59,588 bases of DNA from a virus (taxonomy: Duplodnaviria; Caudoviricetes): IMG/VR virus record IMGVR_UViG_3300021403_000011, positions 1 to 59,588 of that record. One strand, 5' to 3'. The notes beneath the pieces were generated by a model. It had not been told where the DNA came from. It did not search any database and saw nothing but the letters and a program-made list of their open reading frames with translations. Positions 3,361-29,697 of the stretch are shown here, in pieces (within the stretch, counting starts at the first letter, position 1; each line of letters starts with the position of its first letter). Both the position numbers and the translations under genes were made by a program.

Positions 3361-3735
3361 GTGCCGCTGATCGGGAAGAGGATGGCCTCAGACGAGGCCG
3401 CGAAGCTGCCCCTGGCCCACGAGGTGCCGCCGCACCCAGACCGGGCCGCGCTCGACCGCGCGGGGACGACCGCGCGGCTGACCGCGTATGAGAAGGCCCG
3501 GGCGTATGCCCGGCCGCACTGGCACAGCTACCAGCACGCGGCGTGCGGCGAGGTCACGCATCTGCGCTATGACGACGAGGTCGTGGGCCTGGCGCAGAAC
3601 CCGCGGCGCCCCGCGCGCGCCCGCAAGGGCCTGTGGTGCGCCAGCTGCAAGGCCATGTTCCCCGTCGGGAACAACGGGGAGTTCTACTGGGTCAACACCG
3701 CCGGCACCGTCACGCAGGTGAAGGTCGGGACCTAG
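3361..3735 (+). CDS. hypothetical Zn-binding protein
   Basis: GGAGG SD; HxxCG...WCxxC...GEFYW. Confidence 0.6.
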   Translation: MPLIGKRMASDEAAKLPLAHEVPPHPDRAALDRAGTTARLTAYEKARAYARPHWHSYQHAACGEVTHLRYDDEVVGLAQNPRRPARARKGLWCASCKAMFPVGNNGEFYWVNTAGTVTQVKVGT

Positions 3736-3738
3736 CCG

Positions 3739-6294
3739 ATGGCCGGCGCGTTCAAGCAAGACCCGCTGATCCTGACCGTGTCGGGGTCCGGGACCTCGAC
3801 GACGTCGAACCCGCCCGGGTTCCCCGCGGTGACGGCCGGCAGCTCGATCCTCGCCATCGGCACCAACGACACCGGCGGCGCCGGCGACCCGAGCGTGGCC
3901 GACGATGACCCGACCAACCTCGCGGCGTACACCAAGCTCGAGGACGTCACCGACACCACGGACGGCCAGCGCTTCTACGTCTTCTGCAAGGAGAACACGA
4001 GCGCTAGCGCGGTCCGCGTCATCACCATGACCTGGACGGCCGCCGTCGCCGCGCGCGGCTTCGGCATGGCGGAGATCTCGGGCTCGATCGCGCCGGGGGG
4101 CATCGACAAGCACGTCAGTAACTTGCAGACCGCCCCCACGACGGGGACCGACGCCGTCACCAGCGGCAGCTCCGGCACGCTGTCGAAGTCCCCCAACTTC
4201 GCCGTCGCGATCTCGATGGACATGTCGGGCTCGACGGCGCCGGCGACGGGCACCGGATGGACGAGCCCGAACGCAAACTATACCGGCTGGGCGACCTACG
4301 GCGGCGTGCGCATGGAGGGCAAGAACACCTCCGCCACCACGCCGATCGCGGGCACGTTCACCGCGATCGCGAACACGATCCACATCACCGCCCTGGTCGT
4401 GTTCGACGACATCGGCTCATCGGGTGGGGCCGTGACCACGATCTCCGACGAGGCGCCGCCCCGCCGACCACCGTTCCAGTCGACCGGCGATCGCCAGGCC
4501 GAGCAGTGGACGCTCCAGCCGCTGGGGGCCTCGCAGCCGATCAAGTCCTTCCTGGCGACCGAGGGGATGGACCGGCGCCCGTCGTCCGTGCCGCGCCACA
4601 CGTCCGTGCCGTGGACGCTGACCGCCCTGGCCACGCCGACGATCAAGCCGTGGTGCGACCTCGCGCCGCCGGCGCGCGTCCCGCCCTGGGCGCGGCCGCG
4701 CGTGCTCCAGCCGGACGTCTCGATGCAGCCGCTCGGGCAGTCCTCACCCGTGCGGAACTTCCTGCACCAGCACCCGGCGATCGCGCCGCCCTGGCGCGGG
4801 CCGCGCCCCCAGCAGCAGCCCTGGGTCGGCGCGCCGATCGTGGCCTCGCTGCCCGCGCTGCTGGTCAACGACGAGGCGCAGGTCGTGCGCCCGCGCCGCA
4901 TCCGGCGCTGGGCCCCCATGGGAGCGTTGGCGCGCGCGGCGCCCAGCACCGAGAGCTTCCCGTTCGCGCCCGACGCCACGGGGCGCTTCCTCGTGGACTC
5001 CCACGGCGCGCCGGTGCCGATCATCGCGCGCACCGCCTGGGGCATCCAGAGCCTCGGCAGCTCGGACTTGGCGGAGTTCCTCGACGACACCGTGGCGCGC
5101 GGCTACACCGGGATCGAGTGCCAGATACCGTGCAACCTGGCGGCCATCCACAACAACCCGTTCGACTGCAACGGCAACCTCCCCTTCAACAAGCTGCTCG
5201 ACACGTCCACCTGGACCACCGGCTCCTTCTCCGGCAGCAAGCCCGACCTGTCCACGCCGAACGCGGCGTTCTGGGCGAACGTCGACAACATCGTCGCGGC
5301 CTGCCGCACGCGCAAGCTGTGGATGGTCTGGTTCTCCGCCTACCTCGGCATCGACAGCAGCGAGGGCTGGGAGACGACCATGACGGCCAACGGCGACCCC
5401 GCGACGATCGCGTACGGCGCGTTCGTGGCGAACCGCTATAAGCCCCAGCCCAACATCGTGTGGGGGACCGCGGGAGACACCGCCTCGGGGTTCGACGAGG
5501 AGGACGACCACATCACCGGGCTGCAGTCGGTGTCGGGCCAGCGCTCGGGGCCCCAGTTCACGGCGGAGCGCAACGGCGGGTCGATCTCGAGCGACGGCAC
5601 CGGTCCGCTCGGCGCGGCCATGACCATCAATGGTGGCTACGACTGGCCGACGGTGATCGCGCAGTGCCGGCGCGCCTACGCCTTCGGCACCACGACGCGC
5701 GCCATCCCCTCCTTCATGATCGAGGGCCCCTACGACGAGGAGGGGCCAGACGGCAACAACATCAATACCATCGCGACGCAGCCCGTCCGGCGCTGGCCCT
5801 GGTGGGCCATCATCGAGACGATCGGCGGGTTCATCCAGGGCAACGGCTACATCTGGCCGTTCAACCCGACGGGGACGCCGCCCGCGACCGACAACTGGAA
5901 ACTCCACAAGAACACGCAGACCACCCAGGACATCACGCGCCTCGCTGCCCTCTGGAAGTCCATCGCGTGGTGGACGCTGATCCCGTCTGGCCAGAGCACG
6001 ATGGGCACGCTCATCACGTCCGGGGCGGGGACCCCCGACAACGCCAACTACGTCGCGTCCGCCTGCAACCCGGCCGGGTCGCTCTGGATCGCCTACGCCG
6101 GCCCGAGCCGCGCGAGCACGTTCACCGTCGACATGACCGTGATGCGCGGGACGGCGACGGCGCAGTGGTGGAACCCGTCGACCGCCGCGTTTACCTCGGC
6201 CGGGTCGATCGCCAACACGGGCACCCACACGTTCACGGTCCCCGGCGACAATGGGACGGGGTTCTCCGACTGGGTCCTGGTGATGACGGCGTGA
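3739..6294 (+). CDS. multidomain protein: N-terminal virion-like domain, Pro-rich linker, DUF4038/GH140 (apiosidase)-like domain, C-terminal collagen-binding-like domain
   Basis: GRFLVDSHGAP..TAW, FVANRYK..PNIVW..AGD, FMIEGPYD, WWNPST...DWVLV motifs. Confidence 0.7.
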   Translation: MAGAFKQDPLILTVSGSGTSTTSNPPGFPAVTAGSSILAIGTNDTGGAGDPSVADDDPTNLAAYTKLEDVTDTTDGQRFYVFCKENTSASAVRVITMTWTAAVAARGFGMAEISGSIAPGGIDKHVSNLQTAPTTGTDAVTSGSSGTLSKSPNFAVAISMDMSGSTAPATGTGWTSPNANYTGWATYGGVRMEGKNTSATTPIAGTFTAIANTIHITALVVFDDIGSSGGAVTTISDEAPPRRPPFQSTGDRQAEQWTLQPLGASQPIKSFLATEGMDRRPSSVPRHTSVPWTLTALATPTIKPWCDLAPPARVPPWARPRVLQPDVSMQPLGQSSPVRNFLHQHPAIAPPWRGPRPQQQPWVGAPIVASLPALLVNDEAQVVRPRRIRRWAPMGALARAAPSTESFPFAPDATGRFLVDSHGAPVPIIARTAWGIQSLGSSDLAEFLDDTVARGYTGIECQIPCNLAAIHNNPFDCNGNLPFNKLLDTSTWTTGSFSGSKPDLSTPNAAFWANVDNIVAACRTRKLWMVWFSAYLGIDSSEGWETTMTANGDPATIAYGAFVANRYKPQPNIVWGTAGDTASGFDEEDDHITGLQSVSGQRSGPQFTAERNGGSISSDGTGPLGAAMTINGGYDWPTVIAQCRRAYAFGTTTRAIPSFMIEGPYDEEGPDGNNINTIATQPVRRWPWWAIIETIGGFIQGNGYIWPFNPTGTPPATDNWKLHKNTQTTQDITRLAALWKSIAWWTLIPSGQSTMGTLITSGAGTPDNANYVASACNPAGSLWIAYAGPSRASTFTVDMTVMRGTATAQWWNPSTAAFTSAGSIANTGTHTFTVPGDNGTGFSDWVLVMTA

Positions 6295-8134: not shown

Positions 8135-8466
8135 CGCCAGACTTCGAGATCGGGCAGGGGGACCTGCTGCCTCCCTTCCAGCGCCAGCTCCTGAACGCGG
8201 ACGGCACGGCGGAGGACCTCACGGGGAAGACGGTCATCTGGCGGGTCAGGACGCCGGGCTGCTGCGCGCGGGAGCTCGAGTCGACCGGGACGATCGTCGA
8301 CGCCCGGGGCGGGTACGTCTCGCACGACTGGCAGGCAGCGGAGACCCTGACCCCGGGCATCGTCTACGTCTATGCGGTGGCGACCGCGGCTGGATCGGAG
8401 CCGCGCGCCTACCCGCCGCCGCCCCTCGGGTGCTGGACGGTGCGGGTGCTGCCTCAGCTCCGGTAG
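8131..8466 (+). CDS. BppU-like domain protein
   Basis: GTGA overlap, GGAGG SD; FEIGQGDLLP..DLTG..VDARGGYV..W; resembles the upstream C-terminus. Confidence 0.6.
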   Translation: MTPDFEIGQGDLLPPFQRQLLNADGTAEDLTGKTVIWRVRTPGCCARELESTGTIVDARGGYVSHDWQAAETLTPGIVYVYAVATAAGSEPRAYPPPPLGCWTVRVLPQLR

Positions 8467-9203
8467 GGGATCACCGCCAGGACGGTCCGCACGTTCGTCC
8501 CCGACTCGCGGAACGCGCCATCCGGGAGGTCCTCGATGTACCCGCCGCCCGAGTCGACGACGGCGCGAAACTCCTGCGCGATCCGGTCCTGCCGGAAGCG
8601 CGCGCCAGCCGACATCACCGCCGCGAGCACGCCGCCGCGCTTCAGGAACTTCAGCGCGTGGAGCACGTGGGCGACATCCTGTCGCTTCGCGAACGGCGGG
8701 TTCATGATGACGCGGTCGTAGAGCGGGATCGGCGTGACCGCGAGGAAGTCAGCCTCCTCGGTCACCACCGGCAACCCGGCGAACACAGCGCGCAGGTAGG
8801 CGCAGTGCTTCGCCTGGACCTCGTAGCAGTCGACGACCTCCGCGAGGTCGGCGACCCGCCGGACGAGCGCGCCGCGCCCGGCGCTCGGCTCGAGGATCTT
8901 GTGCCCCGGCTTCACGTCCGCCTCGTCGACCAGCAGGCCGGCGACCACCTCGGGGGTCTCGAAGAAGCCGAAGTCCTGGGGTCGAGCCACCTCTCCCGTC
9001 AGGACGATCTGGTCGAGCGCGTCGGCCGCGCCGCCGTCAGATAGATGGGCCTTGTCCTTCCGCGACCACTTCCAGCCGGCCGCCTCCAGGACCTTGTTCA
9101 CCTTCTCGTAGGTCTTCCTCTCGAGCTGCTCGGGCAGGTACAGCTTGTCCGCCTCGGTGCGGCAGTTCGCCAGGATGAGCATCACGTCGTCAGTCACTCG
9201 CAT
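8454..9203 (-). CDS. class I SAM-dependent (probably adenine DNA) methyltransferase
   Basis: FFETP, LEPSAGRG (motif I), MNPPF (motif IV), FRESGTNV; GAGGAG SD. Confidence 0.85.
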   Translation of the reverse strand: MRVTDDVMLILANCRTEADKLYLPEQLERKTYEKVNKVLEAAGWKWSRKDKAHLSDGGAADALDQIVLTGEVARPQDFGFFETPEVVAGLLVDEADVKPGHKILEPSAGRGALVRRVADLAEVVDCYEVQAKHCAYLRAVFAGLPVVTEEADFLAVTPIPLYDRVIMNPPFAKRQDVAHVLHALKFLKRGGVLAAVMSAGARFRQDRIAQEFRAVVDSGGGYIEDLPDGAFRESGTNVRTVLAVIPYRS

Positions 9204-9260
9204 GGGGTCTCCTCTCTGCGCTTGTTATTACCCCGCGTCGATCGCGTAACATCGGGCGAC

Positions 9261-10067
9261 GTGGGTGCGCTCGCATACAACCCAGACGTCGCCATAGCCC
9301 GCGCGAAGTACCAGCAGCGGGTCATCGACGCGCGCACCAGCCTCCAGAACTTCATCGAGTTCGCCGGCCGCTCCGAGGAGGGCGCCGGCATCGAGCTGGA
9401 CCACATCCACAAGATGTGGTGCCACCACCTGACCTACTGCTGGTCGCGCGGCCTGCACGCGGGCATCCTGGCGCCGTTCGGGTCCGGCAAGTCGTCGACC
9501 CTGGCGGTGCCCCTGTCGTGCTACCTGATCGGGCGCAACCCGCAGATCCGGATCAAGTTGGTGGCCAACCACGACGACTACGCCAAGCGCCGGGTCGGCG
9601 CCGCGAAGGCGATCATGGAGACCGTCGAGTACCAGCAGGTCTTCCCGCACATCGTGCCAGGTGAGAAGTGGACCGACCACGAGCTCGAGGTGGCGCGCAT
9701 GCGCGGCCCGATCGATCCCACGCTCCACGCGCGCGGCGTCCTGACTGCCGGCGTCGGCACGCGCGCTGACGTCGAGATCTTCGACGACGTCTGCGACCAG
9801 CTCAACAGTGAGGAGCCCGGCAGCCGGCGCAAGGTGAAGGAGTTCGTGCGCCGCACGTGGCTCTCCCGCCTCGACCAGAAGGCCGGGCGCGCGCTCTGGA
9901 TAGCGACGCCCTGGGACCCGGACGACGCGACCTACGACTTGATGCACGACCAGAAGTGGGCGTTTCTTGTCCAAAGGGTCGCTAAGAGCCACACCGAATA
10001 CGACCAGGAAGTCTTCAATGTCGGCGACGACTATACGGTCGGGTTGGAGGCAATATTGAAGAGATGA
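9261..10067 (+). CDS. terL: terminase large subunit, ATPase half only
   Basis: Walker A APFGSGKS, G.RAD, Walker B IFDD, coupling ATPW; GTG 8 nt after TAACAT. Confidence 0.85.
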   Translation: MGALAYNPDVAIARAKYQQRVIDARTSLQNFIEFAGRSEEGAGIELDHIHKMWCHHLTYCWSRGLHAGILAPFGSGKSSTLAVPLSCYLIGRNPQIRIKLVANHDDYAKRRVGAAKAIMETVEYQQVFPHIVPGEKWTDHELEVARMRGPIDPTLHARGVLTAGVGTRADVEIFDDVCDQLNSEEPGSRRKVKEFVRRTWLSRLDQKAGRALWIATPWDPDDATYDLMHDQKWAFLVQRVAKSHTEYDQEVFNVGDDYTVGLEAILKR

Positions 10068-10597
10068 CCCACGGAAATGCTCGCCTGCGCCGCCCGCTGC
10101 GCATCTTCGAGGACCGAGTGGAGATCCCGCTGACGCGCGGCAAGGTCGCGATCGTCGACCTGATCGATGCGGACCTCGCGTACTTCAATTGGACGACGGA
10201 GGCCAGTCAGGACGGACTGCGGTGGTACGCGCATCGCAATGGCCCGCGTCCCCGTCGGGAATGCATAAAGCTCCACCGCGAGATCGCGAAACGGATGGGG
10301 CTCAAGTTGAACGGGCGGGAAGTCGATCACCACGATGGCGATGGACTCAACTGCCGGCGGGTCAACCTGAGGCGCGCGTCCAGCGGTCAGAACAAGCACA
10401 ACGCGAGGAAGCCGCGCAACAACAAGAGCGGGTTCAAAGGGATCTCATGGAGGCAGGACAGCCAGAAATGGCAGGTCCACATCCAGGCCAATAAGAAAGC
10501 CCACTACCTGGGATTGTTCGCTGACCTGTCAACCGCGGTCGCCGCGCGGTCTGAGGCCGCGCAGCGTCTCCACGGGGAGTACGCCCGGGCCGTGTAA
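10064..10597 (+). CDS. HNH-AP2 homing endonuclease
   Basis: VDHHDGDGLNCRRVNLR..QN; AP2 SGFKGISW..KW..I..YLGLF..AAQRLHGEYA. Confidence 0.9.
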   Translation: MTHGNARLRRPLRIFEDRVEIPLTRGKVAIVDLIDADLAYFNWTTEASQDGLRWYAHRNGPRPRRECIKLHREIAKRMGLKLNGREVDHHDGDGLNCRRVNLRRASSGQNKHNARKPRNNKSGFKGISWRQDSQKWQVHIQANKKAHYLGLFADLSTAVAARSEAAQRLHGEYARAV

Positions 10598-12811: not shown

Positions 12812-13273
12812 ATGGGTAGCCGCGTCGGCGTCCTGAAGATAGCCGCCAAAAAGCTCGGCCTGGAGTTCGGCTGCGACACATGGCACCCGCGGTCAGCGTT
12901 CGGCGCGGATAAGAGCCGCAATGACGGGTTAGCTGCGGCGTGCACAAAGGCCAGGGCGGCGACGCATCCTCCAGGGTGGGAACCCGCGCCAAAGACGAAC
13001 CCTCTTACGGGTAAGCCGGGGCCGGCTCCGGCCCTTGGCCGCGATGGCGACAAGATCCAAGCCAGGTCGCGGATCAATCGTGAGGTCAAGAACGGTTCAA
13101 GGCCGAACCCAAACACGGTCCCGTGCACCGACTGCGGGCACTTGGGCAAGGATCGGCGACATGAACACGACCACTATCGTGGCTACGCTGCTGAACATCA
13201 TGGGGATGTCCAGGTGGTCTGTAGTCGGTGCCACCACGAGAGGGAGATGAAGCGTGGGCGAAACGTCCATTGA
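12812..13273 (+). CDS. HNH-like endonuclease
   Basis: CTDCG..HEHDH...VVCSRCHH; lower GC; TAATAT 7 nt upstream. Confidence 0.65.
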   Translation: MGSRVGVLKIAAKKLGLEFGCDTWHPRSAFGADKSRNDGLAAACTKARAATHPPGWEPAPKTNPLTGKPGPAPALGRDGDKIQARSRINREVKNGSRPNPNTVPCTDCGHLGKDRRHEHDHYRGYAAEHHGDVQVVCSRCHHEREMKRGRNVH

Positions 13274-14282
13274 ATGGAGCCAATTTACGGTCAACCCCAT
13301 CCGCGCGCGGCCGAAGAACAAGCCGGGCGCGCGCTCGGGGCACTACTGCGAGAAGGTCAGCCCCGGCTGCAAGAACTGCTACAGCTCGAGCTTCCAGCCG
13401 CGATTCGGCATGCCGCGGTTCGAGGACGCGGAGATCGACGACCTGGAGGTCTACCTGGACCCCGAGGTCCTGAGGCAGGTACTGCGCCGCCGGCAGCCGA
13501 CGAAGTTCTTCTGGTGCTCGATGACGGACGTGTTCGGGCGCTGGGTTCCGGACGAGTGGATCGCGGCCTGCTTCGGGGTGATGGCGGCGACGCCCCACCA
13601 CACCCACCAGGTGCTGACGAAACGCGCGGAGCGCCTGCCCCAATGGTTCGAGTGGATCAAGGGCCAGTGTTTTACCGGTAATCCGTTTCTGCAGGATTCG
13701 TATGCCCTGTGTTCCACGTGCGCATTCCTTACGCAGGACGTCGCCGGGATCGATGTCCAGAAAGAATCAAGGTCTCCGATAGCAGGCCGAGCTGCTTGGC
13801 CGCTATCCAACGTCCACGTCGGGGTCAGCGTCGAGACCCAGGAGTACGCCGACCTGCGGATCCCGCTGCTGCGCAAGGTGCCGGCGGCAGTGAAGTTCGT
13901 CAGCGCCGAGCCGCTGCTGGGCCCGGTCAACATCTTCGACGTCGACCAGGAGGACGGCGACTACGGTCCCGGATGGGACCTCAAGCACGTCGAGCACCGG
14001 ACCGACTATGGGACTGGCGTCGAGCACGACGTCGACGCGCAGACGGGCATTGATTGGGTCATCGTGGGCGGCGAGAGCGGGAACCGCGCGCGCGATTGCG
14101 ACCTGGCCTGGATGCGCTCCCTGGTCCGGCAATGCCAGCGCGCCCAGGTCCCGGTCCTGGTCAAGCAGCTCGGCGCGCGGCCGGTCGACGGCGGCCAACT
14201 CATCCAGCTGCGCGGCAGCAAGAAGGGCGGGGACATAGAAGAATTTCCGAACGAGTTGCGGGTCCGGGAGTTCCCGCTGTGA
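13254..14282 (+). CDS. DUF5131 / phage Gp37-Gp68 family protein
   Basis: TSIEW, CEKVSPGCKNCY, SMTDVF, QVLTKR, SAEPLLG, WVIVGGESG, KQLG. Confidence 0.9.
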   Translation: MGETSIEWSQFTVNPIRARPKNKPGARSGHYCEKVSPGCKNCYSSSFQPRFGMPRFEDAEIDDLEVYLDPEVLRQVLRRRQPTKFFWCSMTDVFGRWVPDEWIAACFGVMAATPHHTHQVLTKRAERLPQWFEWIKGQCFTGNPFLQDSYALCSTCAFLTQDVAGIDVQKESRSPIAGRAAWPLSNVHVGVSVETQEYADLRIPLLRKVPAAVKFVSAEPLLGPVNIFDVDQEDGDYGPGWDLKHVEHRTDYGTGVEHDVDAQTGIDWVIVGGESGNRARDCDLAWMRSLVRQCQRAQVPVLVKQLGARPVDGGQLIQLRGSKKGGDIEEFPNELRVREFPL

Positions 14283-22535: not shown

Positions 22536-22802
22536 ATGGGAAGTGACAGGCAGAGGTTCAGCACGGTCGCGTGCCCGTTCGGTTGCGACTGGTCGTGGGT
22601 CATCGTTGATTTCGCACCACCGCACTCGGTGCAGCACTACGTCGTCCCGGCGACCGGCGAGGACTCGATCGTCGTGATGGGCGAGGTCAACGGCCTCATC
22701 CCCCAGGTGACCGTCAGCATCCTCCGCCGCCACGCTGGCCAACTGAGCCCCAACTTCCTGTTCAAAAAGTCCCACACCTGCCCGAAGATCACCCGAGGTT
22801 GA
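22536..22802 (+). CDS. hypothetical protein
   Basis: AGGAGG SD. Confidence 0.55.
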   Translation: MGSDRQRFSTVACPFGCDWSWVIVDFAPPHSVQHYVVPATGEDSIVVMGEVNGLIPQVTVSILRRHAGQLSPNFLFKKSHTCPKITRG

Positions 22803-22805
22803 ACA

Positions 22806-22958
22806 TTGGCGAACAACGACCGCCCCGTGACCTGGTGGAACTGCCCGCGCATCAGCATCAAAGACGTGGTCTTGGTGACCGTCGGGTACCAGTTCGGGAG
22901 CTTCATCGGCCAGATCATCGTCGAACTGCTTCGCCGCGCGCTCGGGCTGGTATCCTGA
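22806..22958 (+). CDS. 50-aa hydrophobic peptide
   Basis: GAGG SD, TTG start, fills gap. Confidence 0.35.
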   Translation: MANNDRPVTWWNCPRISIKDVVLVTVGYQFGSFIGQIIVELLRRALGLVS

Positions 22959-22963
22959 CCGCC

Positions 22964-24475
22964 ATGCCTTATGCGAGTAACCGTCAGCGGCGCTTCCTCC
23001 ACGCGGTCAAGCCCGAGGTCGCGGCGGTCTACGACCGGCACGAGCGCCAGGCCCCGGCGATCGGCTCCGCGGTCGACTTCTCGACCCTGCGCCAGCGCGG
23101 CCTGGTCGGCATCTCGGACCGCGTCATCGCCGACCACCTGGCGATGTACGAGCGGTGGTGCGCGGAGCTGCGGCTGCTGGACGCTGCGATCGCCTCGCGC
23201 CCGCTGACCGCGCCGGCGGCGATGCCGAGCGCGGCGGTGGAGGACCTGCTGCGCCGGCGGGTGCGCGACCTGCCGCTCCAGGAGATCAGCGGCCGGCTCG
23301 AGGAGGTGATCGACCAGCTCAAGGGCGAGTTCGTGGCGAGGGGGATCACGTGGTTCCCGACGTTCTACCTGGGCGAGGCGGACTTCTGGACGGCCGATCG
23401 GGCGACGTCGATCAACGTGCCGTGGTACCTGGGCGACGACGTGCTGTGGTCGTTCGTGAACGGGCAGGACGCGCGTTACACGCCTGAGGAGGTACTGGGG
23501 ATCCTGCGGCACGAGGCTGGGCACGCGCTCGGCTACGCGTTCGAGCTCTATCGGCGACAGGACTGGAAGCGCACCTTCGGCAACTTCGGCGCGTCCTACC
23601 GCGACGAGTTCCCGATCGACGCGCAGTCGACGGACTACGTGCGCCACCTCCACGTCATGGACGCCGGCGCCAACGCGCACTACGCCCAGAAGCACCCGGA
23701 CGAGGACTGGGCCGAGACCTTCGCCGTATGGCTCGACCCCGGCAGCCGCTGGCGCGAGGCCTACGCCGCGTGGCCCGGCGCGCTGGCGAAGCTCGAGGCA
23801 GTCGAGCTGATGCTGGTGGGTGAGGGCGCGGCTTACGGCCTGCCGTCGGACACCAGGATCGGCCGGCGGGTCCCGTACGCGACGCTCGACTACACCGTGG
23901 GCGAGTACCTGGGGCAGGCCGAGCAGGACCGGCCAGACCCGCGCGCGGCGGCGCTGCGGCGGCGGCCGGAGGTGTACAGCGCGGTGGTGCTGCACGAGCT
24001 GTACTTCGGTGGGCTTGAGCGCGGCGCCAACGGTCTCGGCCTGGCGCTGACCGGCCGCTTCGCCGAGCTGGCGGGCCCGGACTGGGCAGCTGACTTCCGC
24101 GTGGCGGCGGAGGCGTCCGGCGTCGGCTGGGTGCTCGCTGTCTGGGACCGGCGCGACAACCGGGTGCGCAACGTCCTGGTGAGGGGGCACGACCAGGGCG
24201 TGCCCCCGGGGTGCGAGGTCCTGCTGGCGCTGGACATGCACGAGCACAGCTACGCGGCCGACGTCGGCGCGCGCCGGGACGCGTACGTCGCGGCCTGGTT
24301 CCGCAACGTCTCGTGGTCGGTGGTGAACGGCCGGCTCGACCGCGCGTACCCGCCGCGCGTGGGGGCATTCACGATCGAGAACCCTAACGCGATGTTCGTC
24401 GGGGACCTCGCCGAGCGCAGTGATGCCGTCTTCGTGCGCCGCGACGTCGTCATCAAGCCGCCCGGGGACATATGA
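22964..24475 (+). CDS. Fe/Mn superoxide dismutase-fold protein with inserted Zn-metallopeptidase (Peptidase_Mx-like) domain
   Basis: SOD: ISDRVIADHL.MY, VLHELYF, GW...WD, LLALDMHEHSY; peptidase: RHEAGH, YAQKHPDEDWAETFAVWL. Confidence 0.8.
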   Translation: MPYASNRQRRFLHAVKPEVAAVYDRHERQAPAIGSAVDFSTLRQRGLVGISDRVIADHLAMYERWCAELRLLDAAIASRPLTAPAAMPSAAVEDLLRRRVRDLPLQEISGRLEEVIDQLKGEFVARGITWFPTFYLGEADFWTADRATSINVPWYLGDDVLWSFVNGQDARYTPEEVLGILRHEAGHALGYAFELYRRQDWKRTFGNFGASYRDEFPIDAQSTDYVRHLHVMDAGANAHYAQKHPDEDWAETFAVWLDPGSRWREAYAAWPGALAKLEAVELMLVGEGAAYGLPSDTRIGRRVPYATLDYTVGEYLGQAEQDRPDPRAAALRRRPEVYSAVVLHELYFGGLERGANGLGLALTGRFAELAGPDWAADFRVAAEASGVGWVLAVWDRRDNRVRNVLVRGHDQGVPPGCEVLLALDMHEHSYAADVGARRDAYVAAWFRNVSWSVVNGRLDRAYPPRVGAFTIENPNAMFVGDLAERSDAVFVRRDVVIKPPGDI

Positions 24476-24687
24476 GCCGCCGTCGGATCCCCGAGGCCGC
24501 TAATCACGCCGCGAAAGACCCGCGCGGAATCTGGGGCGAGCTGCATTTCGTCCCTGACGGCAGACGATCGGTCTACTGGGTCTCGCGGCGCTACAGGGGC
24601 GGTTGGGTCATCAACGTCTGGCATCGCTGGGTCCCGAGGACGCACCATCAGGTCAGGCCCGCGGGGATGTTCGACCGTCGCGGGTAA
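24472..24687 (+). CDS. hypothetical protein
   Basis: ATGA-coupled; TAA stop forms the next TAATAT. Confidence 0.5.
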   Translation: MSRRRIPEAANHAAKDPRGIWGELHFVPDGRRSVYWVSRRYRGGWVINVWHRWVPRTHHQVRPAGMFDRRG

Positions 24688-24698
24688 TATCCCCATCG

Positions 24699-24962
24699 AT
24701 GGTCAGCGAGTATGTCGTCGGGCAGTGGCTGTTCGTCCGTTTTTGCGGGATGGACTGCTTCGGGAAGTTCGTCCATGCCAAGGAGCACCAGGTCGTGGTC
24801 GACGTCTTTTATGCCGAGTCAAAACCGGCTAACTATTTACCGACGAGAGCGGTCGATTACTTCGGTCAAAACGGATTGAGGAATCCGCCGTCACGGGTCG
24901 ATTTCGGGCGCGCCGCGTGCTTGATCGCCCCGGTCGAACCGCCATTGGTCCTGCCGGCCTGA
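24699..24962 (+). CDS. hypothetical protein (lower GC)
   Basis: ATG 8 nt after TAATAT. Confidence 0.5.
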   Translation: MVSEYVVGQWLFVRFCGMDCFGKFVHAKEHQVVVDVFYAESKPANYLPTRAVDYFGQNGLRNPPSRVDFGRAACLIAPVEPPLVLPA

Positions 24963-25009
24963 CACCGCGCTGGTGCGCGCGGTCTACCCGGACCTGGTAC
25001 CCTGATCGC

Positions 25010-25276
25010 GTGGTCAAGAAGGCCGCCGCCGCCCGGAAGTCCCGCCGCCAGCTCGCCACGGTGCACGCGCTCCCGGGCGCCGACCGCCCCGAGGACTCGC
25101 TCAAGCGCCTGCACGAGGTGCTTGCCAATGAGGCCCCGAGCGCGGTCATCATCATCAGCGTGGACGCCGGCGGGAAGATCGACGTCAGCAGCTTCGGCAA
25201 GCACGACGACGAGCAGCTGATGGTGGCGGCCGCGCGCATCATGCTGGTCGTGGCGCAGGGCCAGGCCGGCGAGTGA
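25010..25276 (+). CDS. hypothetical protein
   Basis: GTG 6 nt after TACCCT. Confidence 0.55.
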   Translation: MVKKAAAARKSRRQLATVHALPGADRPEDSLKRLHEVLANEAPSAVIIISVDAGGKIDVSSFGKHDDEQLMVAAARIMLVVAQGQAGE

Positions 25277-25323: not shown

Positions 25324-25872
25324 ATGCGCTTTATCGACCTGACCGGCGACATCTTCGGTCGCTTGGTCGTAATGGAACGAGCGCCGAGTCGCGCGCGGAA
25401 CGTCTACTGGTGGTGCCAATGCTCGTGTGGTCAGCGCTGTGCTGTGATGGGTGAGCTGCTGCGCCTGGGGAAGACGAGTTCATGCGGGTGCCTCAAGGCG
25501 GAGACGTACTACCAGATCGACGTGAAGCGCCCGGCAGTCATCGACGGGGACATTGTCCGCATCCAGCTGACCAAGGGCCTGGTGGCGATCGTCGACCTGG
25601 TCGACGCTGACCTGGCACTGTTCAACTGGTGCGCGCTCAAAGGTCGTGACACCTGGTACGCGGCTAGGAACAAGACCGTACCGGAACGCGAGACCATTCT
25701 CCTGCACCGCGAGGTGGCGAAGCGGGCCGGCCAGGCGATCGATGGGTTGGAAGTGGACCACAAGAACGGCGACGGCTTGGACTGCCGGCGGGACAACCTC
25801 AAGCCCGCCAGCCGTTCCCAGAACGCGATCAACACCCGCCGGTATCGCGAGAAACTGGCTACTCTCGGATGA
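25324..25872 (+). CDS. HNH homing endonuclease with N-terminal Zn domain
   Basis: DLTG..FGRL.V..W.CQCSCG..SSCGC; EVDHKNGDGLDCRRDNL..SQN. Confidence 0.9.
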   Translation: MRFIDLTGDIFGRLVVMERAPSRARNVYWWCQCSCGQRCAVMGELLRLGKTSSCGCLKAETYYQIDVKRPAVIDGDIVRIQLTKGLVAIVDLVDADLALFNWCALKGRDTWYAARNKTVPERETILLHREVAKRAGQAIDGLEVDHKNGDGLDCRRDNLKPASRSQNAINTRRYREKLATLG

Positions 25873-26627
25873 ATCGCGGGCAACAACTGCCGTCGATACC
25901 GTGCTGGTCCTTAAAGCACCCCAAGAAGGCCCTCGACGACCTGGCGCGCGACGAGGGGACGTGGAACCGCGGCTACGCGATGAACCCGATCTCCCCGGGC
26001 GAGCTGAAGTTCCCCAACTTTGAGAAGTGCCGGAAAACCGGGATCCTGCTGTCGGACCTGCACCAGCGCCAGCTGCCGGCCTACGTCGGGGTCGACCTGA
26101 GCTCCAAGAACCGCCCCGGCAACGCGATCGTGGTCGTGGGGCTCGAGCCACCGCTGATGCGCCGGTACCTGCTCGAAGTCCGGTTCGGCGCCTGGACCAG
26201 CCCGGACACCGCGTCGAACCTGGCCGAGGTCTGCTCCCACCACAACGTCCAGTGGATCCAGGTCGAGAACAACGCCTACCAGCAGGCCATCATCGACTGG
26301 GTCAAGAAGGAGAAGGCCAAATTCCCCTACTGGATGAAGATCATGCCGTTCACCACCGGCGCGGGGAAGGCAGACCCGCAGTACGGCCTGCCGGGCCTGG
26401 AGGTCGAGTTCAAGAACGACGGCTGGGTGATCCCCTACTCCGAGTACGAGAGCCACCCGACGACCTGCCTGTGCGACTGGTGCCACCTCGACAATGAGTT
26501 CCGGAACTACCCGCGCGCGGCGACGAGCGATGGCGTGATGGCGACCTGGTTCGCGAGGGACGCGGCGAACAAGTGGGCGCCCCGGACCGGCGGCGCCCGG
26601 GTGAAGGGGAACGTCCGGCGCAGGTAA
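25869..26627 (+). CDS. terL: terminase large subunit, RNase H-fold nuclease half
   Basis: Y.MNP, VGVDLS, IVVVG, VENNAYQ, YP..TSDGVMA. Confidence 0.8.
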   Translation: MNRGQQLPSIPCWSLKHPKKALDDLARDEGTWNRGYAMNPISPGELKFPNFEKCRKTGILLSDLHQRQLPAYVGVDLSSKNRPGNAIVVVGLEPPLMRRYLLEVRFGAWTSPDTASNLAEVCSHHNVQWIQVENNAYQQAIIDWVKKEKAKFPYWMKIMPFTTGAGKADPQYGLPGLEVEFKNDGWVIPYSEYESHPTTCLCDWCHLDNEFRNYPRAATSDGVMATWFARDAANKWAPRTGGARVKGNVRRR

Positions 26628-27558: not shown

Positions 27559-27722
27559 GTCGCAAGACCAAGAAGAAGGTCCCGCTGCCGTATGACAGTC
27601 GCCTGTGGCCAGCTACGTATTGGAGGATCCCCAAGATGTCGTGGGCACCGCGCTGCCAGTGCGGTCGGCTAACCTGCAGCGAGTGCCACGCCGGCGCCGC
27701 CGCAAAGCTGGAGGCGCAGTGA
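27555..27722 (+). CDS. 55-aa Zn-binding peptide
   Basis: Coupled on both sides; CQCG..CSEC. Confidence 0.4.
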   Translation: MSRKTKKKVPLPYDSRLWPATYWRIPKMSWAPRCQCGRLTCSECHAGAAAKLEAQ

Positions 27723-29050
27723 AGAAGAAGCCCAGGGTCGACGTCCCGCCCGCGGCCGAGCAACGCCAGCGGATCGAGTACATGGAGCTCGGCGTCCTGC
27801 TCAAGTTCCCGAAGAACCCACGCGGGCACGACTTCGTCGCCCTGGGCGAGGCCTTCAAGGACCGGGGCTTCGTGACGCCGCTGTTGCTCGACGAGACCTC
27901 GGGGCTGCTGGTCGAGGGGCACGGGCGCCTCGAGAAGCTCGAGGAGATGCGCGCGGCCGGGGCGCCGCCGCCGGCGCGCATCGAGGACCGCGACGGCAAG
28001 TGGAGCGTGCCGGTGGTCCGCGGCGTCTACTTCGAGAACATGGACCAAGCCCGCCGCCACCTGCTGGGCGCGAACCGGATCGGCGAGGGGCTGTGGGACA
28101 ACCGCCTGACCGCGGACATGCTGGGCAAGCTCGGCGAGGGCAACCTGATCGGCAGCGGCTTCGGCGAGAAGGACCTCGTGACCTTCCTCGCGCGCGCCGG
28201 CGGCGCGCCGGGCGAGGGCGCGACCGACCCGAACGCGGTTCCCGAGCGCCCGAAGAAGGCGCGCAGCAAGACGGGCGACCTCTGGATCCTGGGCGAGCAC
28301 CGGCTGCTGTGCGGGGACTCGACCGTTGCTGCGGACGTGAAGCGGCTGATGGGATCGGATCGCGCGGCGATGATGGCGACCGACCCGCCGTACGGCGTCG
28401 ACTACACCGATGAGCAGCGCGTAGGCGCGGCGAAGCAGGTCGATGGTGGTAAGCGGAAGCAGATCTGGAAGGTGTCGATCGACAACGACGACAAGACCGG
28501 CGCCGACATCCAGCCCTTCCTCGAGGCCGTCTTCGCGGCGTCGCTGCAGCACGCGCTCGCGCCGAACGCCGCGTGGTACCTGTGGCACGCGCACATGACG
28601 CAGGGATTCTTTGCTGCTGCTGCTGCTGCTGCTGCAAACCTCGTGCTCCACCGGCAGATCATCTGGGTGAAACCTGGGATGCTGCTGGGGTTCGGCGACT
28701 ACCACTGGCGCCACGAGCTGTGCTTCTACGGGTGGGTCAAGGGCAGCCGGCCGCCGTTCTATGGGGACCGGAACCAGACGACCGTTTGGGAGGTGTCGAA
28801 CGAGACCGCGGCGGCGAAGCGCGTCCACCCGACCCAGAAGCCGGTGGAGATTTTCGAGCGCCCGATGAACAACCACGTCAAGCGCGGCGGCGTCTGCTAC
28901 GAGCCCTTCAGCGGGTCGGGCACCCAGATCATCGCGGGCGAGCGCCTGGGGCGCCGGGTGCTGGCGATGGAGAAGGATCCGGCCTACGTCGACGTCGCGG
29001 TCCAGCGCTGGGAAGAGTTCACCAAGCTGAAGGCCAAACTTCAGAAGTGA
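27719..29050 (+). CDS. ParB-like domain fused to N6/N4 DNA methyltransferase
   Basis: NPR.H, GF..P, GHGR; HRLLCGDS, DPPY, IIWVK, HPTQKP, EPFSGSG. Confidence 0.9.
   Translation: MKKKPRVDVPPAAEQRQRIEYMELGVLLKFPKNPRGHDFVALGEAFKDRGFVTPLLLDETSGLLVEGHGRLEKLEEMRAAGAPPPARIEDRDGKWSVPVVRGVYFENMDQARRHLLGANRIGEGLWDNRLTADMLGKLGEGNLIGSGFGEKDLVTFLARAGGAPGEGATDPNAVPERPKKARSKTGDLWILGEHRLLCGDSTVAADVKRLMGSDRAAMMATDPPYGVDYTDEQRVGAAKQVDGGKRKQIWKVSIDNDDKTGADIQPFLEAVFAASLQHALAPNAAWYLWHAHMTQGFFAAAAAAAANLVLHRQIIWVKPGMLLGFGDYHWRHELCFYGWVKGSRPPFYGDRNQTTVWEVSNETAAAKRVHPTQKPVEIFERPMNNHVKRGGVCYEPFSGSGTQIIAGERLGRRVLAMEKDPAYVDVAVQRWEEFTKLKAKLQK
28613..28636 (+). repeat. (GCT)7GCA triplet tract (poly-Ala8) inside the methyltransferase
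   Basis: Read directly from sequence. Confidence 0.9.
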
Positions 29051-29406: not shown

Positions 29407-29697
29407 ATGGGAGGTAACGGCATCGGCTGGGCGATCGACATGATGAAGGCTGGCGGGCGCGTAACGCGCGCGGGCTGGAACGGCAAGGGGATGTACCTGG
29501 CCTACCAGGCGGGCTACCCGGCCGGCATCCCCATCAACGCCAACACCGCACGCGCCACCGGGCTGCCAGAGGGGACGGTCTGCCGGTTCTTGCCGTACAT
29601 CATGATGCGCACGGCCGACGGGTCGTTCGTGCCGTGGCTGGCGAGCCAGACGGACCTGCTGTCGGACGATTGGGAAGCTTTGCCGCTGGGGACGTAA
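29407..29697 (+). CDS. DUF2829 / Tad2-like anti-defence sponge family protein
   Basis: A...MK.G.RV.R.GWNGKGM, PYI.M.T, VPWLASQTDLL.DDW. Confidence 0.85.
   Translation: MGGNGIGWAIDMMKAGGRVTRAGWNGKGMYLAYQAGYPAGIPINANTARATGLPEGTVCRFLPYIMMRTADGSFVPWLASQTDLLSDDWEALPLGT

Follow-up and report, generated by a model that had tools for sequence, protein, structure and literature searches.

We propose that a gene in the window, which is the 59,588-base DNA of the IMG/VR virus record IMGVR_UViG_3300021403_000011 analysed over its whole length, encodes a phage protein with two metal centres, in which a putative zincin of the Peptidase_Mx family (PF15887) is inserted in the hairpin of an iron/manganese superoxide dismutase (Fe/Mn SOD) of the Aquifex, SodFM4-like type, and that this protein would act as an infection effector. 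Taken as a whole, this reading is the one we favour, with a confidence somewhat above even. The fusion protein consists of a basic leader of 33 residues, SOD helix 1 with the ligand His58, the Peptidase_Mx domain at residues 80-320, and SOD helix 2 followed by the SOD C-terminal domain. The parts of the gene are listed below, with the solved Fe-SOD of Aquifex pyrophilus (PDB entry 1coj) as the main structural reference.

22964..24475, + strand: whole coding sequence of the SOD-fold/peptidase protein, 503 residues and a stop codon, from the translation and from full-length homologues
22964..23062, + strand: basic leader, residues 1-33 (MPYASNRQRRFLHAVKPEVAAVYDRHERQAPAI), specific to one clade, from the alignment of relatives
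23069..23197, + strand: helix 1 of the SOD alpha-hairpin, residues 36-78, with the GIS motif and the ligand His58 (23135-23137), from colinearity with 1coj and from hhalign
23201..23923, + strand: inserted Peptidase_Mx zincin, residues 80-320, with HEAGH at 23510-23524 and HYAQKHPDEDWAE at 23678-23716, from stand-alone homologues and Pfam
23924..24349, + strand: SOD helix 2 and alpha/beta C-terminal domain, residues 321-462, from Sod_Fe_C and 1coj
Within the preceding part, + strand: His344 at 23993-23995, Asp424 at 24233-24235, His428 at 24245-24247 and the outer-sphere His409 at 24188-24190
24350..24472, + strand: short C-terminal tail, residues 463-503, at the place where relatives carry long enzymatic tails

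The nested order is most apparent from the comparison with 1coj. A profile built from 36 family members (A1) matches 1coj with an overall E-value of 5e-29 in two colinear stretches, profile positions 19-62 on chain residues 11-56 and profile positions 295-441 on chain residues 57-203, which score 9.2 and 95 bits, respectively. The 1coj chain is covered without a break, and the query side alone is interrupted, by about 232 profile positions at the hairpin turn. The single-sequence PDB search also places 1coj at the top (E 3.9e-13, query residues 337-462 on chain residues 74-201), and its matches are Fe/Mn SODs that begin at the helix bearing the second ligand. When the N-terminal segment of the family is aligned by hhalign with four small bacterial SODs (E 1e-4, probability 57%), GIS is paired with G(I/L)S and His58 with the ligand His. 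A hidden Markov model (HMM) of the small SODs, which comprises four sequences, one of them partial, and whose N-terminal part is weakened, detects the SOD C-terminal part in 92 of the 120 proteins searched; an additional colinear N-terminal stretch appears in 33 of these 92, with an independent E-value below 0.01 in five. Stand-alone peptidases align with residues 80-316 only and lack the segment N-terminal to the insert. In the ESM Atlas, whose own model of the fusion protein has a predicted template modelling (TM) score of 0.50 and a predicted local distance difference test score (pLDDT) of 0.69, one structural neighbour is an SOD-family cluster that aligns over 184 residues between positions 32 and 467, and the neighbours over positions 80-320 are stand-alone Peptidase_Mx clusters (TM 0.83-0.90). 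The G+C content at third codon positions (GC3) is 0.94, 0.95 and 0.93 across the three segments; therefore, the join is either old or fully ameliorated. Together, these comparisons support a nested insertion rather than an end-to-end fusion, with helix 1 predicted to pack on the C-terminal half. The nesting had been put forward in a preliminary description drawn from the DNA letters, and it is borne out by the 1coj profile, hhalign, the borders of the insert and residue conservation. The family profiles named there as a check gave a more divided outcome: Sod_Fe_C matched, Sod_Fe_N did not, and Peptidase_Mx scored 26.7 bits against a cut-off of 27.

The gene model is consistent over its whole length. 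The reading frame runs uninterrupted from ATG at 22964 to the stop codon at 24473-24475, and G+C at the three codon positions of the gene is 0.74, 0.48 and 0.94. The frame is also open upstream as far as a TTG at 22799, and GC3 of this extension is 0.45 versus 0.94 inside the gene. The extension overlaps a small gene candidate in another frame:

22806..22958, + strand: hydrophobic open reading frame (ORF) of 50 residues directly upstream of the fusion gene, GC3 0.90

This small ORF has no homologue among the collected relatives and loci with which it was compared. The nearest homologues of the fusion protein begin with MPY or MPF. Because the extension has a low GC3, the ORF at 22806-22958 has a GC3 of 0.90 and the homologues start with MPY or MPF, ATG 22964 is taken as the true start. 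The frame and coordinates first given for the gene, 22964-24475, are thus correct by translation, GC3 and homologue starts. Every motif quoted in the preliminary description is likewise present in the 503-residue translation: the leader motif MPYASNRQRRFL, GISDRVIADH(58)LAMY, HEAGH at 183-187, HYAQKHPDEDWAE at 239-251, LH(344)ELYF and D(424)MHEH(428).

The SOD part retains the residues expected of a metal site. Residues 375-456 match Sod_Fe_C (PF02777) with an E-value of 2.4e-13 and 50.4 bits versus a cut-off of 20.9. Conservation was counted over the 92 relatives that carry the SOD part, fragments included, among the 120 matches listed. His58 is a His in 85 of the 92, the remainder being five gaps in fragments, one Leu and one Gln; His344 is kept in 90, Asp424 in 86 and His428 in 90. 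These three His and one Asp align in sequence with the ligand motifs of 1coj. Predicted metal binding by the SOD part is well supported by this conservation. In the classification of Sendra et al. (2023, PMC10172142), SodFM3 and SodFM4 are the tetrameric subfamilies of Fe/Mn SODs, a C-terminal water-binding His is a trait of both, and SodFM4 is without the last His of the HxxxHH motif. Judged by its residues, the SOD part is of the SodFM3/4 kind, with His409 present and the later His of HxxxHH lost. The 1coj entry is probably the single SodFM4 structure. Outside the viral family, a protein at about 3600-4378 of a Candidatus Binatia metagenome-assembled genome (MAG; locus L110) is SOD-like with a VVLHELYF-type helix and an apparent twin-arginine-like start (RRHVLAGFALGAGTLAL), so that the Aquifex-type SODs may include an exported protein.

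The insert is recognised as a putative peptidase by its motifs and by its stand-alone relatives. Residues 177-258 match Peptidase_Mx with an E-value of 4.6e-6 and a score that falls just below the cut-off, and other members exceed it, for example a stand-alone protein (L002, 30.2 bits) and a relative of the fusion protein (P0049, 38.2 bits). A stand-alone protein from Myxococcales shares 52% identity with it over residues 80-316 of the fusion protein (E 5e-80). HEAGH at 183-187 and HYAQKHPDEDWAE at 239-251 correspond to a zinc-binding motif and a downstream acidic/His motif, kept in 91-92 of the 92 relatives: HExxH, Y240, H244, D246, E247 and E251 are each present in all 92, and H239 is present in 91. 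A sequence search of the PDB with the insert returned a chance match alone (E 0.96) and no solved relative. The bacterial neighbours of stand-alone Peptidase_Mx genes present a mixed picture across 14 loci, with an ATP-grasp ligase of the D-Ala-D-Ala ligase type in five, a divergent Rce1-like protein in three, these in loci of Myxococcota type, and ClpB in two; loci L031, L041, L046, L067 and L077 were noted for their neighbours. The substrate of bacterial Peptidase_Mx may be made by an ATP-grasp enzyme, which is a lead rather than a function. A reading of the insert as a prohead protease was rejected, as no prohead protease is known to be a zincin.

The SOD part is also predicted to mediate pairing. 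Two copies of residues 36-470 were folded with alignment A1, together with three controls. The homodimer score is 0.62 (0.64, 0.62 and 0.41 in the individual runs) versus 0.00 for the best of the three controls; of 30 solved homo-pairs, 20 attain the mark applied, as does one of 23 proteins solved as single chains. The dimer model has a pLDDT of at least 78 and a contact agreement of at least 34%, and its confident contacts are confined to two stretches of the SOD part, residues 325-346 and 380-422. The fusion protein is thus predicted to pair through its SOD part, and this outcome of the modelling may reflect likeness to solved SOD oligomers. In tetrameric SOD forms, it is the hairpin that builds the oligomer interface.

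The two ends of the protein differ in their distribution. The closest relatives share a leader consensus, MPxxSxxQRRxM..P..A.RW..E.K, which is found in 16 of the 92 by a strict pattern and in more by eye; the more distantly related half of the family has no such leader. Across 1.1 Mb of loci scanned, the pattern occurs at fusion-gene starts only. A separate search found no shorter protein that shares the leader, and the leader has no Pfam or PHROG match. The basic leader that had been described as preceding both domains is real and conserved in the nearest clade. The C-terminal tail at residues 463-503 has no match outside the fusion protein itself among the proteins compared. The downstream ORFs at 24472-24687 and 24917-25276 were considered as tail remnants and rejected after comparison with proteins. 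The window's copy is a bare, tail-less form of the module.

The same architecture recurs in proteins from four independent sources. A word-indexed protein search gave 1,410 matches; the 120 listed divide into P0001-P0092, which have the SOD part, and the stand-alone peptidases P0093-P0120. An exhaustive profile search of 1.84 billion representatives gave 7,972 matches, 537 of them at an E-value of 1e-30 or below. Only about 28 representatives at 50% identity contain the full-length module. The module is N-terminal in all of them, beginning no later than residue 26 in 27 of 28, and 14 of 28 are at least 560 residues long. IMG/VR contains 16 loci with the full module, and the Atlas cluster with this architecture consists entirely of viruses. 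A non-exhaustive scan of 185,579 prokaryote species, each represented by a single genome, yielded at least 584 confirmed bacterial loci, and the best 80 of them encode the peptidase only. The corresponding scan with the SOD part returned a single fusion (L105), whose contig of 87,962 bp had been assigned to a Myxococcales MAG. This contig looks like phage DNA because it also carries a terminase half, a Mom-like gene and ParB. Across these searches, the module is restricted to viral or phage-sized contigs. A tblastn search of phage GenBank records found no match to the fusion protein, and PHROGs returned a chance-level match alone (E 0.096).

The origin of the insert is indicated by a quick maximum-likelihood tree of 138 peptidase domains. 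In this unrooted tree, all 56 fusion rows and the viral L098 and L099 lie on one side of a branch with an approximate likelihood ratio (SH-aLRT) support of 99, and ten proteins from Myxococcota-type MAGs form the next split, also with a support of 99. The topology fits a single capture from a Myxococcota-like host, the direction being read from an unrooted tree. Because the sister peptidases and the MAG holding L105 are Myxococcota, this phylum provides the candidate hosts. The module occurs in a single group of uncultured phages of high GC, which probably infect Myxococcota. The IMG/VR protein at 3294-4571 of L099, whose peptidase falls within the phage fusion clade, combines Peptidase_Mx with an N-terminal DxDGT segment, HAD-phosphatase-like by eye, and has no SOD part.

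Tails are present on about half of the clusters and resemble ADP-ribosyltransferase, PI3/4-kinase or topoisomerase IB domains. DRAT-like ADP-ribosyltransferase tails reach or exceed the cut-off in P0049, P0129, P0131, P0134 and L095 and fall below it in P0087. PI3/PI4-kinase-like tails are above the cut-off in P0125 and below it in P0126, P0133 and L096, Topoisom_I tails occur in P0055 and P0072, and the tails of P0123, P0124, P0050, P0052 and P0048 match no known family.

The record is linear, a single metagenomic contig with a CheckV completeness of 68 and a G+C content of about 69%, and its genes are nearly all on the + strand. PHROGs and Pfam identify a tailed phage, with two pieces of the terminase large subunit, an SPP1-type portal, a MuF-like head protein, a major head protein, a tape measure and a baseplate wedge. 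The genes that bear on the setting of the module are as follows.

8454-9203, - strand: second DNA methyltransferase
9045-10067, + strand: ATPase half of the terminase large subunit, phrog_38 positions 258-471
10064-10597: HNH endonuclease, which abuts the terminase ATPase half
25324-25872: HNH endonuclease between the module and the terminase nuclease half, abutting the nuclease half
25869..26627, + strand: nuclease half of the terminase large subunit, phrog_38 positions 484-697, E 1.1e-12
27605-29050, + strand: ParB-like domain fused to a DNA methyltransferase, phrog_498, E 1.3e-102
29407-29697, + strand: Tad2-like (Thoeris anti-defence 2) ORF of 96 residues between the terminase half and the portal, Pfam E 6.4e-24

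The two terminase halves are about 16 kb apart in the window. In 8 of 10 places scanned, the module is followed downstream, at a distance of 0-4.1 kb, by an ORF of about 250 residues whose match is confined to the terminase nuclease half. The eight are the window, L084, L086, L088, L093, L094, L096 and L105, and the exceptions are L091 and L092. Because the nuclease-half ORF recurs in seven related loci, the split of the terminase is a lineage feature and not an artefact. Upstream of the module lie genes for DNA methyltransferases, ParB, Mom-like proteins or 7-deazaguanine synthesis. Directly upstream are 7-deazaguanine genes in L086, L093 and L094 (QueC-like, GTP cyclohydrolase, QueE-like radical SAM and queuine tRNA-ribosyltransferase-like) and a Mom-like gene in L105. 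The ParB-methyltransferase of the window is located between the terminase half and the portal and recurs beside the terminase half in L084. Elsewhere in the window, a protein of 851 residues (3739-6294, + strand) combines an Apiosidase-like glycosidase with a collagen-binding-type domain and may be a depolymerase or tail-associated enzyme, and a DUF5131 protein is encoded at 13254-14282 (+ strand).

How might the two metal centres of the fusion protein work together? In the mechanism that we propose, a bacterial Peptidase_Mx zincin, closest to the stand-alone proteins of Myxococcota, would have been inserted into the turn of the N-terminal SOD hairpin. The SOD halves would reassemble around an Fe or Mn ion and dimerise via the SOD part, and the peptidase domains would project from the hairpin tips of the dimer. 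The protein would serve the phage as an infection effector of the polyvalent-protein type, in which the SOD centre would remove superoxide or at least bind metal and the zincin would cleave a peptide or amide bond of the host or phage. In the tail-bearing relatives, the zincin would probably free the ADP-ribosyltransferase, kinase or topoisomerase tail. The effector role is suggested by the N-terminal position of the module, the variable tails, and the methyltransferase and Tad2-like neighbours. Furthermore, zincin peptidases are described by Iyer et al. (2017, PMC5512222) as the commonest hub of phage polyvalent proteins, where they are proposed to process the polypeptide, and a role early in infection is proposed there for these proteins. 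The module places two enzymatic folds, one of them a zincin, in one phage polypeptide, as in that class, and its relatives add DRAT-like, kinase-like and Topoisom_I domains. Like the preliminary description, we infer that the fusion protein may be a bifunctional or redox-linked enzyme.

Several observations weigh against this proposal. On the structural side, the likeness of the N-terminal helix to 1coj is weak when taken alone (independent E-value 4.4), Pfam Sod_Fe_N (PF00081) has no match in the fusion protein at E-values up to 1, and the small-SOD HMM, with its weakened N-terminal part, finds no N-terminal stretch in the 503-residue protein itself. Around the metal site, His409 is present here and is a His in just 48 of the 92 relatives. 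The Tyr34 position, placed by the 1coj alignment with uncertain loops, is Trp65 and is Ala in 40, Tyr in 22 and Trp in six of the 92. The HxxxHH motif is reduced to His58, and the His30 and His31 positions, where the loop alignment is uncertain, are not His. Two residues ahead of the Asp ligand, 78 of the 92 have Ala. With a second sphere this loose, efficient dismutation is not assured, and some members of the family may have little or no SOD activity. The peptidase activity is itself a prediction, as a characterised Peptidase_Mx member was not found in the literature or the PDB. The fusion protein of the window has no tail to process. PADLOC gave no result for it, for one stand-alone relative or for five relatives with tails. 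The word superoxide occurs 0 times in the main text of PMC5512222. The enzymatic activity and the effector role assigned here are putative.

The chief rival, which we regard as possible at well under even confidence, holds that the SOD fold is a metal-stabilised dimerisation scaffold that displays two peptidases and no longer performs dismutation, which would leave the peptidase as the sole enzyme. The loosely kept His409, Tyr34, His30 and His31 positions, as defined in PMC10172142, point in this direction, as do the stricter conservation of the peptidase motifs (91-92 of 92) relative to the SOD ligands (85-90 of 92) and a predicted interface that lies wholly in the SOD part. However, each of the four ligands is retained by no fewer than 92% of the relatives, fragments counted, across clusters that are about 40% identical, which exceeds what a scaffold needs; moreover, the His409 of SodFM3/4 is present here, and 1coj, the closest solved relative, was deposited as a superoxide dismutase. 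An unlikely alternative places the module in packaging or the virion, where it would work with the split terminase or be packed into the capsid, for instance as an internal protein. Such a role would explain why the terminase nuclease half follows within 0-4.1 kb of the module in most places scanned, with the portal a few genes further, and the conserved basic leader could be a targeting peptide. The upstream neighbours are nevertheless DNA-modification genes and not structural genes, L091 and L092 lack the terminase neighbour, no PHROG family of head or packaging proteins is matched, and the more distant relatives, half of the family, have no leader. Less likely still is a redox-gated delivery head, in which the Fe/Mn centre would sense the oxidation state of the host or superoxide, switch the zincin via the hairpin and free the tail; in tail-less forms, the peptidase would cleave a host target instead. 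If true, such a head would represent a new, virus-only class of allosteric, metal-coupled device for effector release.

Two further alternatives concern the architecture rather than the function of the protein. In an end-to-end fusion, the first 80 residues would be unrelated to SOD and the peptidase would be followed by an N-terminally truncated SOD. The missing Sod_Fe_N match, the failure of the small-SOD HMM to find an N-terminal stretch here and the mere 9.2 bits of the 1coj N-terminal stretch agree with this arrangement. We consider it very improbable, however, as the spacing of GIS...H is kept with a nearly invariant His58, the two 1coj stretches abut exactly (11-56 and 57-203), hhalign places His on His, N-terminal matches occur in about a third of the relatives (33 of 92), and the segment is absent from stand-alone peptidases. 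In addition, the SOD neighbour in the Atlas aligns over 184 residues from position 32 onward, which exceeds the 142 that the part beyond the insert can offer. A chimeric assembly or a frameshift that joins two genes, the former being an artefact that the preliminary description had named as a possible refutation, is refuted, and we give it practically no weight: the architecture recurs in four sources, 16 IMG/VR loci and about 28 clusters, the frame is uninterrupted and GC3 is uniform.

Few metalloenzymes have been studied as much as the Fe/Mn SODs; those of phages are usually of the Cu/Zn type according to the preliminary description. A literature search (SOD, metallopeptidase, domain insertion, phage, Peptidase_Mx, PF15887) found no description of an SOD-nested peptidase, in agreement with the initial statement that no described equivalent was known, and a whole second metalloenzyme spliced into the hairpin of an Fe/Mn SOD is absent from the literature searched. 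The nested module may be a new building block from which phages assemble effector or counter-defence proteins, and the Peptidase_Mx family gains a first biological context. The module also offers a natural test case for the effect of domain insertion on the assembly of the SodFM metal site.

Three known systems come closest to the module, each of which it resembles in part. The Fe-SOD of Aquifex pyrophilus is the best solved match to the fusion protein; the VVLHELYF helix is identical in the two proteins, the D..EH.Y motif is common to both, and the four ligands align. His409 adds a likeness to SodFM3/4, and the loss of the last His of HxxxHH recalls SodFM4 as characterised in PMC10172142. In contrast to 1coj and SodFM3/4, the fusion protein contains a foreign domain of 240 residues in the hairpin turn, has Trp at the Tyr34 position and retains the first His of HxxxHH alone; its family is virus-only and often long-tailed, and the split hairpin is missed by Pfam Sod_Fe_N. 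The stand-alone Peptidase_Mx proteins of Myxococcota MAGs (about 365 residues; P0105 and L002-L011) are 48-53% identical to the phage domain over the whole insert, with identical borders, and HExxH and HYAQKHPDEDWAE are invariant in them as in the phage inserts. They differ in being free-standing and chromosomal, with a short N-terminus and an unrelated C-terminal extension of about 110 residues. Finally, the polyvalent proteins of phages and plasmids described in PMC5512222 are likewise multi-enzyme polypeptides with a zincin-like metallopeptidase hub, and the relatives of the module also combine it with ADP-ribosyltransferase and other effector domains. However, polyvalent proteins string their domains in series, whereas the peptidase of the fusion protein is nested inside another fold.

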